Positions 23,904 to 32,000 of a stretch of 32,000 bases of DNA are shown piece by piece. Numbering within the stretch: position 1 is the first letter of the stretch; each line of letters opens with the position of its first letter. Source of the DNA: Cupriavidus necator (GTDB taxonomy: Bacteria > Pseudomonadota > Gammaproteobacteria > Burkholderiales > Burkholderiaceae); assembly GCF_016127575.1 (NCBI RefSeq), contig NZ_CP066018.1, positions 3,420,001-3,452,000 of the forward strand, written 5' to 3'. Below the pieces are notes generated by a model. That model saw only the letters and a program-made list of their open reading frames with translations. It searched no databases and was not told where the DNA came from. Position numbers and translations under genes: made by a program.

Positions 23904-24736
23904 ATGGAAGCCGTCGTCTCGCGCCATGTGGCCGGCATGCCCCAGTTGGCATACACCGGCCTGTCAGAGAACTGGCTGCTGAAGACCTGCGGCGACCTGC
24001 ACTGGCGCCTGCTGGCCGCCGGCGCCGGCCTGGGGGTGCCGGACTTCCGCGATGCCGAGGGCAATCCGGTGTATGCGGCGTTCACCGCGATCCGCGTGCG
24101 CGACGCCGCGCCGCAAACGGTCGGCGAGCACGCCGGGTTCAGCATCGGTTCGCACATCGTGCCAGCGGGTGGCGTGAAGCACCTCAGCGAACATGCGGTC
24201 GACATGCATGGGGACTGCCGCGCCAGCGTGACGATGCTGTCCACCTTCATCCGCCGCACGCGTGACCGGGACAACCGCTCGGTCGTGCGCACCATGCCGA
24301 CCGTGGCCGCGCAGTGGGCCGGCGCCGGCCCGTCGGCACAGGCGGCGGAACTGTCGCTGCTGGCACGGCGTTTTCGCGGCGGGGATTGGGGCATGCATCT
24401 CGGGCTCGATCAGGCCCGGCATCGCGTCTGCCACGCCGCCGAGTACCTGCCGTGCCCCTGCAACGACTTCAATGGCGCCGACCTGCTGTACTTCGCCAGC
24501 TTCCAGGCCATGGTCGATCGCGCGGAATGGCAATGGCGCCGCGACGCGGATCCGCCCACGGTGTTCGCGCGGGACCTGTTCTTCCATGGCAACGTCAATG
24601 TCGGCGAGTCGCTGGAGCTGATCTTCTCCGCGCTGCGCGAGGACGAGGAAGGATTGACGCACTGGTGTGAGATCCGGCGCAGCCGCGACGGCGAGAAGAT
24701 CGCAGATGTGGTCACGCAGAAGCGGTGGAGGCAACG

Positions 24737-24740
<4 letters not shown>
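23904..24740 (+). CDS. Double hot-dog-fold protein, LnmK / Pnap_2097-like (tentative)
   Basis: Starts 1 nt after the flavoprotein stop. Two hotdog-like halves each open with a helix-type motif (GLSENWLLKTCGDLHWRLL and DFNGADLLYFASFQAMVDRAEWQW). The family name is from memory. Confidence 0.5.
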
Positions 24741-26815
<2,075 letters not shown>

Positions 26816-27007
26816 GCGTGACGTCCTCGATCGCCACGTCGCCCACCAGCATGTAGCCGGGCGCATGCGTGATACACAGCGGCAGCAGCGCCTGCACGGC
26901 CGCGGCCAGAGGCGTGCCGCCTGGATGGCGATGCTTCCGCTTGCTGAGATGTCCGACAACCGGGTCGCGACCTTCCCGCGTTTCGTATTTGCACCAGAAC
27001 CTTCGCC

Positions 27008-28063
27008 CTACCGCGTGGCGAACGCCAGCCGCGGTGGCGCTTCTGGCACCGCGCAGCGAACGCGCCGGTCGCGCTCCGGCAGTGTCAGCTGGGTACGTGG
27101 CGGCGCGGCTCGCCGCACGCCGAGGATTTCGGCTACATTGGCTTGCGGGCGGAGCAGCGGCCGCAGCAGCGAGGCGGGGCCTGTGAGCAGCGGCGTCACG
27201 CCCGGGCCGTGCCCGCTGACCGTGCTGTCGCCGTGTACCACGACGCCGATGGTCACGCGGTCATTGGCGTAGCGCGGCCCCCGCCGCGTATCGGCGCCGA
27301 TGATCGCCACCATGTCGCCGAAGCGCAGGCTGCCCAGACGGTAGCGCTCACGTGCCTGCCGGTCCGACAGCTGGATATCGTAATCCCCGCGCCATGCATT
27401 GTTCTTTCCCAGTCCGGAGCCCATGACGCGCGCCGGCACCAGATGCGTGACCGGCGCATGGAGCTGGCCATCGCGCTCCAGCAGGCCCCATCGCGCCAGC
27501 AGGCGCGGCGAGCAGTTGAGGACTTCGATTCGGGGGTAGTCGCGGAGTCGTAAGCCCAGTCCATGCGAAAGAACCTGGATGCGGTCGCCGATGCAAAGGC
27601 GCACCAGCACCTCCGTGGGAAAGTCCACCAGCACGTGGTTGACGCCGCCGTGCTTGCCCGTCACCACACCAGTCCGGCCCGCGCACGCTCCGTTGACCAC
27701 ACGGGCCGGATTGCCGACGCAGGCATAGGTCAGCAGGGCGCTGTTGGGTCCGTCGCGTGGGCCGACGATCTCGCGCCCGTTGTTGTGCAGGGCGACCCCC
27801 GGCTCGATATGGTCGCCCGCCAACCCGACGCAAGGATCGCCGATGCGCCTATTGACCACGATGCCGCCGGTACCCGGCAGGACGCGCGGCACGCCGTCGT
27901 AGCCAATGCGGTAGGGCGAGGCGCGCCCCACGGGATGCGCGATCTGCCCAAGGACGGACACCGCCACGAGTTCGTCGGCATTGATTCGGGGAACGGGGCG
28001 TGCACCGTCGCGGCCGGCCGGACGGGACAGGGCTTGCTGGACGAGCGGAATCGGGCGGGACAT
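27008..28063 (-). CDS. DUF4438-like protein (function unknown)
   Basis: The SPYRIGYDGVPRVLPGTGGIVVNRRIGDPCVGLAGDHIEPGV segment resembles what I remember of DUF4438 (the TM1086 family). The ATG at 28063 has GGAG 9 nt upstream. An alternative ATG at 28072 directly abuts the GGAG. Confidence 0.55.
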   Translation of the reverse strand: MSRPIPLVQQALSRPAGRDGARPVPRINADELVAVSVLGQIAHPVGRASPYRIGYDGVPRVLPGTGGIVVNRRIGDPCVGLAGDHIEPGVALHNNGREIVGPRDGPNSALLTYACVGNPARVVNGACAGRTGVVTGKHGGVNHVLVDFPTEVLVRLCIGDRIQVLSHGLGLRLRDYPRIEVLNCSPRLLARWGLLERDGQLHAPVTHLVPARVMGSGLGKNNAWRGDYDIQLSDRQARERYRLGSLRFGDMVAIIGADTRRGPRYANDRVTIGVVVHGDSTVSGHGPGVTPLLTGPASLLRPLLRPQANVAEILGVRRAAPPRTQLTLPERDRRVRCAVPEAPPRLAFATR

Positions 28064-28075
28064 GGGTGCCATCTC

Positions 28076-28750
28076 CTATCGCATCCTGCGCACCACGGTG
28101 GCGGCGATCTGCGGCTGTCCCGGCGCGCGCCGGTTCTCGGCCGCGACGGCGTCGTAGATGGTGTGCGCGATATGGTGCAGCTCCGCATCGGTCACGCGTC
28201 CGCTGACCTGATAGAACAGGCGCACGCGCTGCGGCAGCCCGGGCACGGCGCTGGTCCGGGACTGGCGCATATGGCGCCGCACCTGGTCCATGTCGCGCAC
28301 CACCTGTCGCGCAAGATGGCTCAGGCGTAGCCGTCCGTTGGCGTCGCGGTAATCGGTTGCGTGTAGCAGCTTGCTTTCGAGGCCTGCCGGCAGGCGCTTG
28401 GGGGCAGCCGGCATCGGCGTGAGATCGAGCACCGAGCCGCCCCTGCGCGGGCCGATGCGGAGCTGGTTGCGCACATCGAAGCCGCGCAGGCACAGGCGTT
28501 CGACCAGGATCTGCTCGGCGCAACGGCCACGCAGGTTATTGATGACGATGAGCGCCGGACGCTGCCCGCGCGGCCGGGCCTCGGCGGCGGCCAGATCACG
28601 GCATGCCAGATGCCGGGCGCGCGAGGCCGGCAGGCATTCGTTGCGGCCGACGGCAGGGTCGGCATCCCCGGCGCGTCCGCGCTCGCGCGTCCAGTGCCGA
28701 ACGGCATCGTCAAGCATGGCGTCGACGAACTGGTCGATTGCTGCGCTCAT
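28076..28750 (-). CDS. Hypothetical protein (224 aa)
   Basis: MSAAIDQFVDAMLDDAVRHW... The ATG at 28750 forms an ATGA overlap with the upstream gene's stop. The track ORF extension to 29068 was rejected. No family was recognised. Confidence 0.55.
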   Translation of the reverse strand: MSAAIDQFVDAMLDDAVRHWTRERGRAGDADPAVGRNECLPASRARHLACRDLAAAEARPRGQRPALIVINNLRGRCAEQILVERLCLRGFDVRNQLRIGPRRGGSVLDLTPMPAAPKRLPAGLESKLLHATDYRDANGRLRLSHLARQVVRDMDQVRRHMRQSRTSAVPGLPQRVRLFYQVSGRVTDAELHHIAHTIYDAVAAENRRAPGQPQIAATVVRRMR

Positions 28751-29613
28751 GCTTCGGCTCCTTGCGGGGCCGGTGTGCCGATCGCCGGAGTGGGGCAAAG
28801 GGGATACCACCAGGCGGTGGCTTGCTGCCAGGGGTCGGCATGATGGCCGGTCCCGACCAGCGGGCCATCGACGCAAGCATGGTGCGGCGACGACGCCATT
28901 ACATGCAGCGCGGCCAGCCTGGGCAGGCGTTCGGCGAGCCCGGCCACTCCTGCCGCTGCCAGTGCGTCGCGCAGCAGCGAGCGCTCGGCGCCGAACAGGG
29001 ATTCGGAAGGCAGCGGGTCCAGATGCCGCACGTCGACGCCGCTTCGCCACAGGGCATGCACCGGCCACGGTGCGCCGTCACCATCAAGCGTGGTCAGCAC
29101 GATGGCGGCATCGAGCGTGGCGGAGAGTGCGAGCGTGTCGAGGGCGATGGCGAGCGGATCCCACCAGGGGGAGGGCATTGGGCCGAGCGCCGGCCTTGCC
29201 CCCTCGCAGCGGCGCAGCAGGGCGTCGAGCAGGACCTCGTAGCGCTCGACCACGGCATGGTCGGCAGCGTCGCCGAGCTGGGAACCGGCCACGTTGTCTC
29301 CGACCCAGCGAAACGGCCACGACGCGGCATCGGTGCAGTCGCGCATCGCGATCCACGCAATCAGAGCGGGTTCGAGCGGCCTCGGCACGGCGCCGCCGCT
29401 GTCCAGTGCCGCGCCGTTGGCCGAGAGGCCTGGCAGTACCATCTCGCTCGCATCGATGACCTGCCAGAACGCGCGCGTGAGCCAGGGCTCCAGCACCCGC
29501 GTGAGCCGCAACGCCAGGCTCGGCCCCCAGGGCGACCCGAGCACCAGCGCGGGATCGAGGATGCAGGCGAGCTTGCGTTGCCGTACCGATACGATCATGT
29601 CCTCAGCATGCAT
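28747..29613 (-). CDS. Hypothetical protein (288 aa)
   Basis: MHAEDMIVSVRQRKLACILDPALVLG... GGAGA lies 9 nt upstream of the ATG at 29613. No family was recognised. Confidence 0.55.
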   Translation of the reverse strand: MHAEDMIVSVRQRKLACILDPALVLGSPWGPSLALRLTRVLEPWLTRAFWQVIDASEMVLPGLSANGAALDSGGAVPRPLEPALIAWIAMRDCTDAASWPFRWVGDNVAGSQLGDAADHAVVERYEVLLDALLRRCEGARPALGPMPSPWWDPLAIALDTLALSATLDAAIVLTTLDGDGAPWPVHALWRSGVDVRHLDPLPSESLFGAERSLLRDALAAAGVAGLAERLPRLAALHVMASSPHHACVDGPLVGTGHHADPWQQATAWWYPLCPTPAIGTPAPQGAEA

Positions 29614-29672
29614 GGCGGGGCGTCTCCGTGTCAGCCGCGGTCAGGGATGCGCAAATGTACGGCGCGCCACGG

Positions 29673-30758
29673 TCAGGCCGCAGCCTGCGGCACGCCGAGC
29701 ACGCTGTTCAGCGCGTGTGTCACGCCGGGGAATCCTCGGCCCTCGGGCGTCATCCGGTACGCGGCGACCCACGCTTCCGCGTGCGCGCCCATGGGCCGCA
29801 CCACGCTCTGGAACAGGATCGGATCGGTTGCGGTCTTGAAATCATTGTCCGCAACAAACTGCAGGATCCGCCGGCCGCTTTCGGCCATCTTGGCCCGTTG
29901 CGAGGGCTCGGCCACCCCGCCGAGATAGCGATTCGAGACGATCTCGACCACATCCCACTTGGTGTTGGCGTCAAAGGCCTTCTTGATGTCGGGCGAATCC
30001 AGCAGCTTGAGCACCTGGATCAGGTAATGCCCGGTTTCCATCGCGAGCGCGAAGATATTGCCGTAGGTAGACCGGTCCAGCGCATAGCGCAGGTCGAGCC
30101 CGATGCGCTGGATGGTGCCGACGCTGCCGAAGGGACGCTGGTCGATCAGCTGTCCGCCCCGGATGACTTCGCCGATCAGCAGATCGCGGAAGTACTGGCC
30201 CATCGCCACCATGAAGCCGACCATCTGGCGATGGAAATTGCGGTTGACCACTGCGCCGGCCGGGGCCTGCGCGGTGCCATAGTTGAAGGCGCGCCGATAG
30301 GCCACCATGCGGTCCTGCCGGGTGTAGCGCAGTGGCCGCCATTTTTCGAGCAGATAGAGTCCGCGCGCGCCGGGGCCGCGCTGGATGCGCATCTTCCCCA
30401 GGCGGAACAAGCGCAGCAGGGTCTCGACCACCTCAAAGATCTTCATGCGCTCGTGCTGATAGATAAAGTACAGCTCGGCAGCCGCATGCAACTGGCTCGG
30501 GATGATTGAATCGTCGAAGTCAGGCTGTACATAGGGATAGCCGATCTTCTCGAAGCCGACTGCCCCCTGAGGACCGAGGCCGAGCAGATCGAAGAAGCCT
30601 TCCTCCCCGCTGCCATTGGGTTTGGACAACAGTTCAGAGTAACGCTGCTCGAACTGCGAGGCGAAGGCGTCGCGCTGGTCGGGCGGCAGGCTGGCCAGCT
30701 GCTCCTGCAGAAAGGTCTCCCACAGGCGCTGAATGGTTTCGGTGGTCTGGAAGTTCAT
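29673..30758 (-). CDS. Hypothetical protein (361 aa)
   Basis: MNFQTTETIQRLWETFLQEQL... Its composition is balanced and globular (K, F, Y, I, N present), unlike the antisense frames. GGAG lies 6 nt upstream of the ATG, 21 nt after the upstream stop. No family was recognised. Confidence 0.7.
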   Translation of the reverse strand: MNFQTTETIQRLWETFLQEQLASLPPDQRDAFASQFEQRYSELLSKPNGSGEEGFFDLLGLGPQGAVGFEKIGYPYVQPDFDDSIIPSQLHAAAELYFIYQHERMKIFEVVETLLRLFRLGKMRIQRGPGARGLYLLEKWRPLRYTRQDRMVAYRRAFNYGTAQAPAGAVVNRNFHRQMVGFMVAMGQYFRDLLIGEVIRGGQLIDQRPFGSVGTIQRIGLDLRYALDRSTYGNIFALAMETGHYLIQVLKLLDSPDIKKAFDANTKWDVVEIVSNRYLGGVAEPSQRAKMAESGRRILQFVADNDFKTATDPILFQSVVRPMGAHAEAWVAAYRMTPEGRGFPGVTHALNSVLGVPQAAA

Positions 30759-30779
30759 GATGCGCTCCGTCGTCGGGGG

Positions 30780-32000
30780 TCAGGCCTTGGCAGGGCCGCC
30801 GTCGGGACCCGCAGGGCCCGCTCCGCTACCGTCGGCGCCAGTACCTTCGGTGCCGTCGAAGGCATCAGCCGCACCGGGAGTGAGAGGGGCGGGGGCAGCG
30901 GCGGGCGGCACGGCGGACGTGCCCGGCGTAAGGAGTCGCCGGCGATTCCGTTCCCCCAACTCGTGCGCGATACGATCGATCGAGCCGTCCGGATGTGGCG
31001 GAATCTGCGGGGCGTGCTCGCGATAGTCGCGGTTGCGCCGGTGCCACTCGGGCACGCGCTGCTCGATCATCATCAACGCGCCGCGCTGGTATCCCGGCAG
31101 CATTCCGATATTGCCAAAGGTCCCCATATGTGGCGGACTGTGATAGACGGGGGCGAGCGTCGCATCTGCAAGCATATCCGAGGCCGGAATGCAGCCGGAT
31201 GTCATCTGTTCGACGATGGGCCGCAGTGCGCGCTCGGCCTGCAGCTGGAGCACAAGCTCGCCATGCATCAGCCAGGCGAGCGGTGTCGGTCCTGCCGGCC
31301 CCGTCAGATCGAAGTGATCAATGGTGTGCTTGTCCCATACACGCCATTGGGGCGCGGGGATGACCGGATCCTGCGGGGCGGCGAAGCTGACCCCTGCCGG
31401 GATCAGCAGTGCGGCCATTTCCGACAGCATTGCGCCCGTCGGGTTGTCGGGATTGGTGATGTCCTTCATCGGTGCAGCGGCATCGAGCCAGACATCGGGG
31501 TAACGCAGCGCCAGCGCAAAGATGGCGTGGGCGGCGGCACGCTGTTCCGGCATGCCAAACTCTTCGGTGCCGTTGGCGTAGAGATCGATTGCGCGGTCGA
31601 GATCGTGCAGGACACGGTCAAGCAGGACCTGCAGCTTGAGCGTATCGGGGTCGCAGTCGCAACGGGTGACACAGTCGATGGTCGAAGCAAATCTGCCGCG
31701 CAGACTGACCAGATTCATCAGACGCTGCTCGGCAAAGGTGGTGCCGCTCCCTCCGTAAAGGCCATACATCAGTACGCTGGGACGCGCAATGCGCAGGAGG
31801 CGCAGGCCGCCGGAAGCCTGGAAGCCGTCCACGAACAACTGCAAGGCGTCCTGAAACGCCAGCAGCGGTGGCGCGTCGCGGACCGGCAGGTGCAGCGTCA
31901 CCTGCACGAAGCGCGAGAACCGCCCGAGCATGTTCCATGCGGTCGCGCCGACCCGGCGCAGCCCGTCGCTCGAGCCTCCCGCACACAGCTGGATCATTTC
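30780..32000 (-). CDS. Hypothetical protein with a Pro/Ala/Gly-rich C-terminal tail; the reading frame is open to the right edge, so it may be 5'-truncated
   Basis: A 405-aa ORF in the track (ATG at 31997), but the frame continues through 32000 with no stop. The body has ordinary composition, and roughly the last 50 residues are low complexity. Confidence 0.6.
   Translation of the reverse strand, partial: EMIQLCAGGSSDGLRRVGATAWNMLGRFSRFVQVTLHLPVRDAPPLLAFQDALQLFVDGFQASGGLRLLRIARPSVLMYGLYGGSGTTFAEQRLMNLVSLRGRFASTIDCVTRCDCDPDTLKLQVLLDRVLHDLDRAIDLYANGTEEFGMPEQRAAAHAIFALALRYPDVWLDAAAPMKDITNPDNPTGAMLSEMAALLIPAGVSFAAPQDPVIPAPQWRVWDKHTIDHFDLTGPAGPTPLAWLMHGELVLQLQAERALRPIVEQMTSGCIPASDMLADATLAPVYHSPPHMGTFGNIGMLPGYQRGALMMIEQRVPEWHRRNRDYREHAPQIPPHPDGSIDRIAHELGERNRRRLLTPGTSAVPPAAAPAPLTPGAADAFDGTEGTGADGSGAGPAGPDGGPAKA

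Follow-up and report, generated by a model that had tools for sequence, protein, structure and literature searches.

The last 5 kb of a 32,000-nucleotide stretch of the Cupriavidus necator genome (C1:3420001-3452000, contig NZ_CP066018.1, hereafter the window; the genome measures 7.4 Mb, in three replicons, at ~67% GC) hold the 3′ part of an accessory module of ~10.5 kb and nine genes. It consists of an operon of eight co-directional minus-strand genes, ~9.5 kb long and named g1 to g8 in order of transcription, and of a divergent GerE/LuxR regulator gene. The module is self-contained, ancient and optional, with a conserved core and an exchangeable periphery. Its composition is shared by no known multi-gene system, and beyond DUF4438 and GerE it contains no described families. 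We tentatively read it as an ATP-independent cytoplasmic machine built around proteolysis, which would process its own polyampholyte proteins, a reading that we hold to be possible rather than probable.

A first-pass annotation of the window had described five minus-strand open reading frames (ORFs) as a compact operon running off the right end. All five are present in the ORF listing: g8 (27008-28072, 354 amino acids (aa) from its first ATG, the last gene of the operon), g7 (28076-28750, 224 aa), g6 (28747-29613, 288 aa), g5 (29673-30758, 361 aa, the hallmark protein of the module) and g4 (30780-32000, 406 codons within the window, with an open 5′ end). The junctions were also correctly described, with 21 nt between g4 and g5, 59 nt between g5 and g6, a 4-nt ATGA overlap of g6 and g7, and 3 nt between g7 and g8, or 12 nt if g8 starts at Met4. 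This second start (28063) is the more plausible, because in 28063-28077 an AGGAG touches the first ATG of g8 (28072), while the second in-frame ATG lies 9 nt away. Extension of the sequence to the right, using a 20-kb genome stretch around the operon (L001, whose coordinates plus 27000 give window coordinates), bore out the compact co-directional arrangement and enlarged it. The five ORFs are indeed the 3′ part of a real unit, for which at least five genes had been proposed; the whole unit counts eight genes and a regulator. The gene g4, credited with at least 405 aa, encodes 692 aa (L001 3780-5858, up to window-equivalent 32858). Three more minus-strand genes, with ORFs of 432, 358 and 380 aa, lie upstream of it beyond the window: g3 (L001 5910-7208, ~430 aa, with an HExxH motif), g2 (L001 7247-8323) and g1 (L001 8360-9502). 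The regulator gene (L001 9747-10493) is on the plus strand. A GGAG-type ribosome-binding site is found before most of g1 to g8, and a promoter and terminator scan gave nothing above chance.

The choice of the minus-strand ORFs over two long ORFs of the opposite strand, also made in the first pass, is borne out by codon composition and by selection. The eight genes have a codon pattern typical of a high-GC genome, with a GC content of 0.78-0.86 at third (GC3) and 0.41-0.58 at second (GC2) codon positions; the ranges for the five window ORFs are 0.78-0.83 and 0.41-0.56. The antisense ORFs 28371-29459 (GC2 0.79, GC3 0.66) and 28603-29928 (GC2 0.62, GC3 0.74) were rejected as real genes, since they lack this codon pattern and the minus-strand ORFs are under selection. 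Ratios of non-synonymous to synonymous substitution rates (dN/dS), computed on pairs against three orthologous clusters, were 0.09-0.12 for g5, 0.15-0.17 for g3, 0.15-0.22 for g8, 0.19-0.40 for g1 and g2, and 0.41-0.53 for g4 and g6; g7 could not be paired and was left out. We conclude from the coding pattern and the dN/dS values that the minus-strand ORFs are real genes under purifying selection, g7 standing outside the dN/dS test. Nine RNA-seq runs of the organism contain the sequence, and depth was taken from the one run with raw reads, contig-wide depth values being set aside. It was 1-6 over the operon on both strands, with no strand bias, and 12-16x on one strand over the regulator gene region (L001 9543-10276), with clusters of read starts and read ends at L001 10071 and 9784. 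The operon is close to silent in that condition, its transcription being neither shown nor excluded, and RNA-seq is therefore uninformative on function.

With one genome scanned per species, g5 proved to be encoded in 143 species, and synteny was examined in the best 80 loci. Co-localisation of homologues in other genomes, on which the first-pass annotation had made its operon depend, was seen in 80 of the 80 loci examined. The order recovered almost everywhere by tblastn with the eight proteins is g1/g2, g3, g4, (variable), g5, (variable), g6, (variable), g8, GerE. On the proteobacterial side the 80 loci come from Burkholderiales, Rhodocyclales, Nitrosomonas, methanotrophs, Lysobacterales, Chromatiales, Pseudomonas and Alphaproteobacteria, and elsewhere from many Cyanobacteria (Microcystis and a relative of the Gloeobacterales among them), Armatimonadota, Desulfobacterota, Kuenenia and Sericytochromatia; to these a separately found Polyangiaceae locus is added. 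Gene set and gene order are shared by loci of Proteobacteria, Cyanobacteria, Planctomycetota, Desulfobacterota, Myxococcota and Armatimonadota. Identities across loci range over 64-91% for g5, 54-81% for g3, 47-80% for g8 (73 syntenic loci), 36-54% for g4 (60 loci) and 24-60% for g6. At the level of single proteins, 780 homologues of g5 were found in a set of 5.8 billion, the top 120 at 76-90% identity; homologues span at least eight phyla, and none was found in the phage collection.

No copy of the module turned up in 24 other sampled species of the genus. At the nucleotide level, the copies of Burkholderia stagnalis and Burkholderia sp. SRS-46 are 70-77% similar to ours from luxR to g8 only, with unrelated flanks. 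Since similarity ends there, the ~10.5-kb luxR-g8 stretch is what is inherited as a unit. A g5 tree, quickly built by maximum likelihood, required 5 changes of phylum label, compared to 18 in shuffles, with a few local anomalous placements. A g5 tree that largely follows taxonomy, together with a dN/dS of 0.09, points to an old, tightly constrained assembly. In a Methylotenera metagenome-assembled genome (L027), g5 is almost identical to its Roseateles puraquae counterpart (L026) and falls within the Roseateles clade; probably the contig was mis-binned, or the transfer is very recent.

The g3 protein has a zinc-peptidase motif. The segment FLHEVAHNLQAD is invariant in 29 orthologues; it comprises H191, E192 and H195 of the HExxH motif, N196 and D200, and E234 and D238 are invariant as well. 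D200 and E234 are candidates only for the third zinc ligand. The motif is kept in the divergent g3 proteins of two loci, L100 and L116, which the g3 hidden Markov model recovers at E 4e-85 and 4e-82. With zincin metallopeptidases, such as Lit (Peptidase_U49), g3 shares the HExxH motif, followed in g3 by further invariant Asn, Asp and Glu residues, and a language-model search gave a weak lead to Peptidase_U49 (0.77, below 0.9).

Upstream of g3, g1 and g2 encode paralogous proteins, largely low-complexity block-polyampholytes, strongly acidic over the first third of their length and Arg- and Ala-rich over the last. By thirds, the net charge is -29/+5/+23 for g1 and -39/+3/+24 for g2, and a hydrophobic segment is absent from both. 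From N to C terminus they carry the motif M..FE.DVMDDL, the acidic block, DA.D.DEF, the Ala/Arg-rich basic block, and a terminal strand R...L.GPV.I.I, preceded by CPxCG in some g2 proteins.

Around g5, an exhaustive profile search delimited a wider superfamily of 781 representatives, which includes divergent homologues of 370-400 aa and proteins of 540-800 aa with the domain at their C terminus. Among 20 remote g5-domain proteins, the only domain fusions were one to PKD and one to HhH. Publicly, the homologues of g5, like those of g3, are all named 'hypothetical protein', and an Atlas search with g5 yielded nothing usable. A first model of g5, made from a shallow alignment, had a predicted local distance difference test score (pLDDT) of 58, and the fold searches started from it were discarded as meaningless. 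With a deep alignment of 50 sequences, AlphaFold2 gave a model with a pLDDT of 82.3, a predicted template modelling score of 0.72 and 17 helices, the core (85-345) being above 90. According to this model, g5 is all-alpha. Structural neighbours of the model were looked for with Foldseek in the PDB (none at E<=0.001), VIA-wide (best Z 5.1) and in the Atlas (TM<=0.25); a missing structural match of a model does not prove a new fold. As for its upstream neighbour g4, conservation is confined to the N-terminal 450 residues, and no nameable motif and no Pfam or PDB match was found in it.

The last gene, g8, was tentatively placed as DUF4438-like in the first pass, and rightly so: the protein is a full-length member of the family, which passes both Pfam models (PF14505, E 2e-54, 183.2 bits for a cut-off of 24.9; PF20999, E 4e-47, 159.6 bits for a cut-off of 27) and matches TM1086 in the PDB (3dcl, 3n99) at E 3e-65. 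Ten residues are invariant or nearly so: H88, H141, H280, H288, D87, D163, D237, D253, D282 and C118. The TM1086 crystal entries contain 5 and 30 chains. We found no literature mentioning DUF4438 or treating TM1086 (3DCL, 3N99), and no function is known for the family. Its range greatly exceeds that of the module: among 301 genomes sampled in the same phylum, 82 encode DUF4438, mostly in one family of small (~2 Mb) genomes, where it is nearly universal, and g5 was absent from 4 of the 5 DUF4438-bearing genomes checked, including both of those checked in the small-genome family. A single sub-branch of DUF4438 is tied to the module. Outside the module, peptide and amino-acid catabolic genes are found next to DUF4438. 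In genome G049 of the small-genome family (L096 6063-8498) it lies between aat, which encodes the Leu/Phe-tRNA protein transferase, and a CN-hydrolase gene, and it is adjacent to a CN-hydrolase in six other genomes (L088-L093). In genome G317 (L097 4457-12605) a tandem pair sits among an M32 carboxypeptidase, Ldh_2, an M24 peptidase, an amidohydrolase and two aminotransferases, and these neighbours hint at an enzymatic role of DUF4438 in peptide or amino-acid catabolism.

The conserved core is made of four kinds of protein, namely one or two polyampholyte proteins (g1, g2), the g3 protein, a g4 protein of 600-700 aa and g5; the present subfamily adds g6, DUF4438 and exchangeable, fast-evolving genes in three slots. 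Here g7 occupies the g6-g8 slot, and the g4-g5 slot gene of most other clusters is missing; elsewhere this slot is filled by many unrelated sequence clusters. The idea that the variable g4-g5 gene of other genomes corresponds here to g7, or to a fused tail of g4, was rejected, as BLAST showed no relation. Many g4-g5 slot genes share a '..TAFH..' N terminus, and some look by eye like coiled coils or CBS pairs. By eye as well, the CBS-pair look is found in Chromatiales and a carboxypeptidase-regulatory-like domain in Kuenenia. In Microcystis aeruginosa, the slot gene (L058 8770-9795) encodes 342 aa with collagen-like KGDAGP/KGDTGD repeats.

Departures from the standard set were found in divergent clusters (L100, L101 and L111). 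These keep two or three acidic/basic proteins, g3 and a g5 homologue, lack g6 and g8, and have a large helical-looking protein in the place of g4 and a ~100-aa protein with the GerE helix-turn-helix (HTH) domain directly after g5. The cluster of Paraburkholderia sp. PGU19 has two genes between g5 and GerE, one for an M20 carboxy/dipeptidase (E 8e-65) and one for a 266-aa protein. In a remote branch (L098), an S8 serine peptidase is encoded directly upstream of the g5-domain protein; on the plasmids of Tolypothrix (L115) and Fremyella, a peptidoglycan-binding protein is intercalated between the two. The Tolypothrix g5-domain protein has 615 aa and 24% identity, and is encoded on 195-kb mobilizable plasmids of Tolypothrix sp. 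PCC 7712 (L115 5608-9930), PCC 7601 and NIES-3275; on L115 an alpha/beta hydrolase, the S8 peptidase and the peptidoglycan-binding protein precede it.

The g6 gene belongs to the DUF4438-bearing subfamily, where it follows g5 directly or one slot later in ~70 loci. Its product has invariant D54, W87, R91, D106, S111, D159 and W269, nearly invariant D20 and E110, and a conserved C-terminal motif D.W..A..FWY.L. A Pfam search with 21 members gave no match, and the RecC/AddB nuclease-like domains to which a language-model search led (0.85) are a lead only, being below 0.9. For comparison with the acidic quartet of PIN nucleases, g6 has conserved D20, D54, D106/E110 and D159, but hhalign against six PIN proteins of this genome gave a probability of 0.2%, and the PIN reading was not supported. 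Much rarer, g7 is present in 5 of the 80 loci, with 13 relatives among the 5.8 billion proteins. It has the pattern RG..AE ... D109 ... E125-S-K127 ... Y134, invariant in 6 sequences and resembling that of PD-(D/E)xK nucleases; no Pfam or PDB-profile match was found behind it. At its N terminus, IDQFVDAMLDD is reminiscent of the motif with which g1 and g2 begin.

The regulator has a GerE HTH domain (PF00196, E 2e-14, 53.4 bits for a cut-off of 23.5), which is conserved in 20 cluster-linked regulators, with no recognised sensor domain. In the subfamily with g6 and g8, the regulators have an extra conserved N-terminal domain of ~60 aa (EF.I ... F...G), beta-rich by eye. The ~100-aa GerE proteins of the minimal subfamily (L100, L111) lack it, so that the extra domain co-varies with g6 and DUF4438. 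A complex prediction of regulator residues 115-248 with g5 and g8 scored 0.00, which is no verdict, and was counted neither way.

On its 3′ side, the island ends with a convergent intergenic region of 192 nt (26816-27007), across which g8 faces a plus-strand ORF (24725-26815) for the methylmalonyl-CoA mutase large subunit (E 5e-215 to human and bacterial enzymes). Beyond the regulator gene lie genes for a fused TRAP DctQM transporter and a mannitol dehydrogenase.

Searches with the eight proteins and their family alignments against Pfam, NCBIfam, PADLOC and PHROGs matched, together with the regulator, only DUF4438 and GerE, and sequence and profile searches of the PDB with g3 to g7 returned nothing below E 0.1. 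The first-pass view that the four window proteins beside DUF4438 belong to no known family is therefore upheld by these profile searches. Its other statement, that the unit carries no enzyme signature, fails once the whole unit is considered: the upstream g3 has its invariant HExxH, g7 its E...D...ExK pattern, and DUF4438 its invariant His/Asp/Cys set. No membrane segment and no signal-peptide-like N terminus was found in any of the eight proteins, and no NTPase motif was seen, the family searches also suggesting none; nor did any variant of the module bring in an NTPase, membrane or secretion component.

We now consider what these proteins may do together. Proteolysis or peptide processing is the only functional theme backed by several independent results: an invariant HExxH is present in g3 across subfamilies, an S8 peptidase lies beside the g5-domain protein in the remote branch, an M20 peptidase follows g5 in Paraburkholderia sp. 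PGU19, and DUF4438 elsewhere sits among peptidases and aminotransferases. In the machine that we tentatively propose, the regulator would switch the operon on, and g4 and g5, with g6 and g8, would form a stable complex. The g3 protein, as a zinc endopeptidase, would cut g1 and g2, parting the acidic masking block from the polycationic Arg/Ala-rich block, and this would release an active polycation or the conserved terminal peptides. DUF4438 would trim or convert the products, the M20 carboxypeptidase of the sister subfamily being found in that place. The variable genes would encode clients or adaptors, docking via short N-terminal motifs. Such a machine could serve in growth arrest or defence, in storage or in peptide signalling.

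Several points weigh against this proposal. An HExxH is by itself no proof of catalysis by g3, and g3 matched no peptidase family in Pfam, NCBIfam or the PDB profile search. That g3 cleaves g1 and g2 is something we infer. Of the three divergent clusters seen (PGU19, L100 and L111), one alone carries the M20 gene; in L100 and L111 the GerE gene comes next after g5. A mere scaffold role does not account for how extremely g5 is conserved, and structure prediction covered g5 alone. Finally, the near silence of the operon in the available RNA-seq means that expression lends the proposal no support.

A somewhat doubtful possibility, which we nevertheless keep in view, is that the module is an unrecognised ancient ATP-free machine, made of an all-alpha protein of new fold, a zinc-peptidase-like subunit and charge-block proteins, with a function that has no known analogue. 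A proteolytically matured cytoplasmic body, or a polycation system unmasked by a protease, may serve as examples of such a function.

A cytoplasmic compartment or condensate, in which g5, perhaps with oligomeric DUF4438, would form the shell or lattice, g1 and g2 the coacervating scaffolds, g3 the maturation protease and the variable genes the cargo, directed there by short terminal peptides, appears unlikely to us. The module does share the logic of microcompartments, encapsulins and CsoS2/CcmM scaffolds: it has no ATPase, scaffold-like disordered proteins, short terminal motifs and a conserved core. Neither NTPase nor membrane proteins were seen, g5 is as conserved (64-91% identity, dN/dS 0.09) as proteins that form large assemblies by tiling, g1 and g2 have blocky charge, and TM1086 crystallised with 5 and 30 chains. 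An acidic amphipathic N-terminal motif is common to g1, g2 and g7, as '..TAFH..' is among variable genes, and the patchy yet taxonomy-following distribution is that of optional structures. However, no BMC-H, BMC-P or HK97-fold shell family, and hence no microcompartment or encapsulin shell, was found by Pfam among the eight proteins. The all-alpha g5 is without structural neighbour, the minimal subfamily does without DUF4438 and g6, and PDB chain counts are no proof of a cage. Moreover g3 is conserved over all its 430 residues, more than a maturation protease needs.

We consider quite unlikely an anti-phage or conflict system, in which the g3 protease and nuclease-like effectors g6 and g7 would be triggered through variable sensors, the polycationic halves of g1 and g2 being toxic. 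Like protease-containing anti-phage systems, the module is accessory, an independently acquired island absent from the 24 sampled species of the genus, and combines a protease-motif protein, nuclease-like motifs and three slots of exchangeable, fast-evolving genes. The E...D...ExK of g7, the RecC/AddB lead of g6, the Peptidase_U49 lead of g3 and the fusion of one remote g5-domain homologue to HhH go in the same direction. Yet the nuclease readings are motifs and leads only, and g7 is missing in most clusters. No PHROGs model matched the eight proteins, PADLOC-DB 2.0 gave 0 families at E<=0.1, and the phage collection contained no g5 homologue. The core is 55-90% identical between phyla and its tree tracks taxonomy, unlike arms-race genes.

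A ribosomal-peptide pathway, of the kind of ribosomally synthesised and post-translationally modified peptides (RiPPs) or pheromones, seems improbable. It would take g1 and g2 as tandem precursors, g3 as the peptidase, g5, g6 and DUF4438 as tailoring enzymes, and the LuxR protein as regulator, and would fit the way in which the operon opens, with one to three precursor-like paralogues and then a gene for a peptidase-motif protein, the conserved C-terminal 12-residue motif (sometimes after CPxCG), the constant linkage of LuxR/GerE to the cluster and the enzyme-like His/Asp/Cys set of DUF4438. But the precursors would have 280-430 aa and be conserved at both ends, the conservation of g5 is atypical for a tailoring enzyme, and no known RiPP tailoring enzyme family, transporter or immunity gene was recognised among the cluster proteins; as all of them are cytoplasmic, there is no export route. 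Signal transduction, with g5 and its partners controlling the GerE factor, for example by sequestering it until proteolysis by g3 releases it, is just as improbable: no feature of the module is more universal than the linkage of g5 to GerE (in minimal clusters a ~100-aa GerE protein lies directly after g5, with a 4-nt overlap in L111), the regulators lack a recognised sensor and the RNA-seq depth of the regulator gene is above that of the operon, but eight genes are many for one HTH protein, and the regulator of Burkholderiales is divergently transcribed, as an ordinary operon regulator would be.

Seven of the nine protein families of the module are un-annotated, and yet the set has stayed almost whole from Burkholderia to Microcystis, Kuenenia and Polyangiaceae, with a core protein, g5, that evolves as slowly as a housekeeping protein. 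To be widespread, tightly constrained, optional and unexplained at the same time is a rare mix, and one that usually points to a piece still missing from cell biology. At ~10 kb the module is small; it has its own regulator and occurs in cultivable Burkholderia, Cupriavidus, Azoarcus, Roseateles and Pseudomonas. It would give DUF4438 its first functional context.

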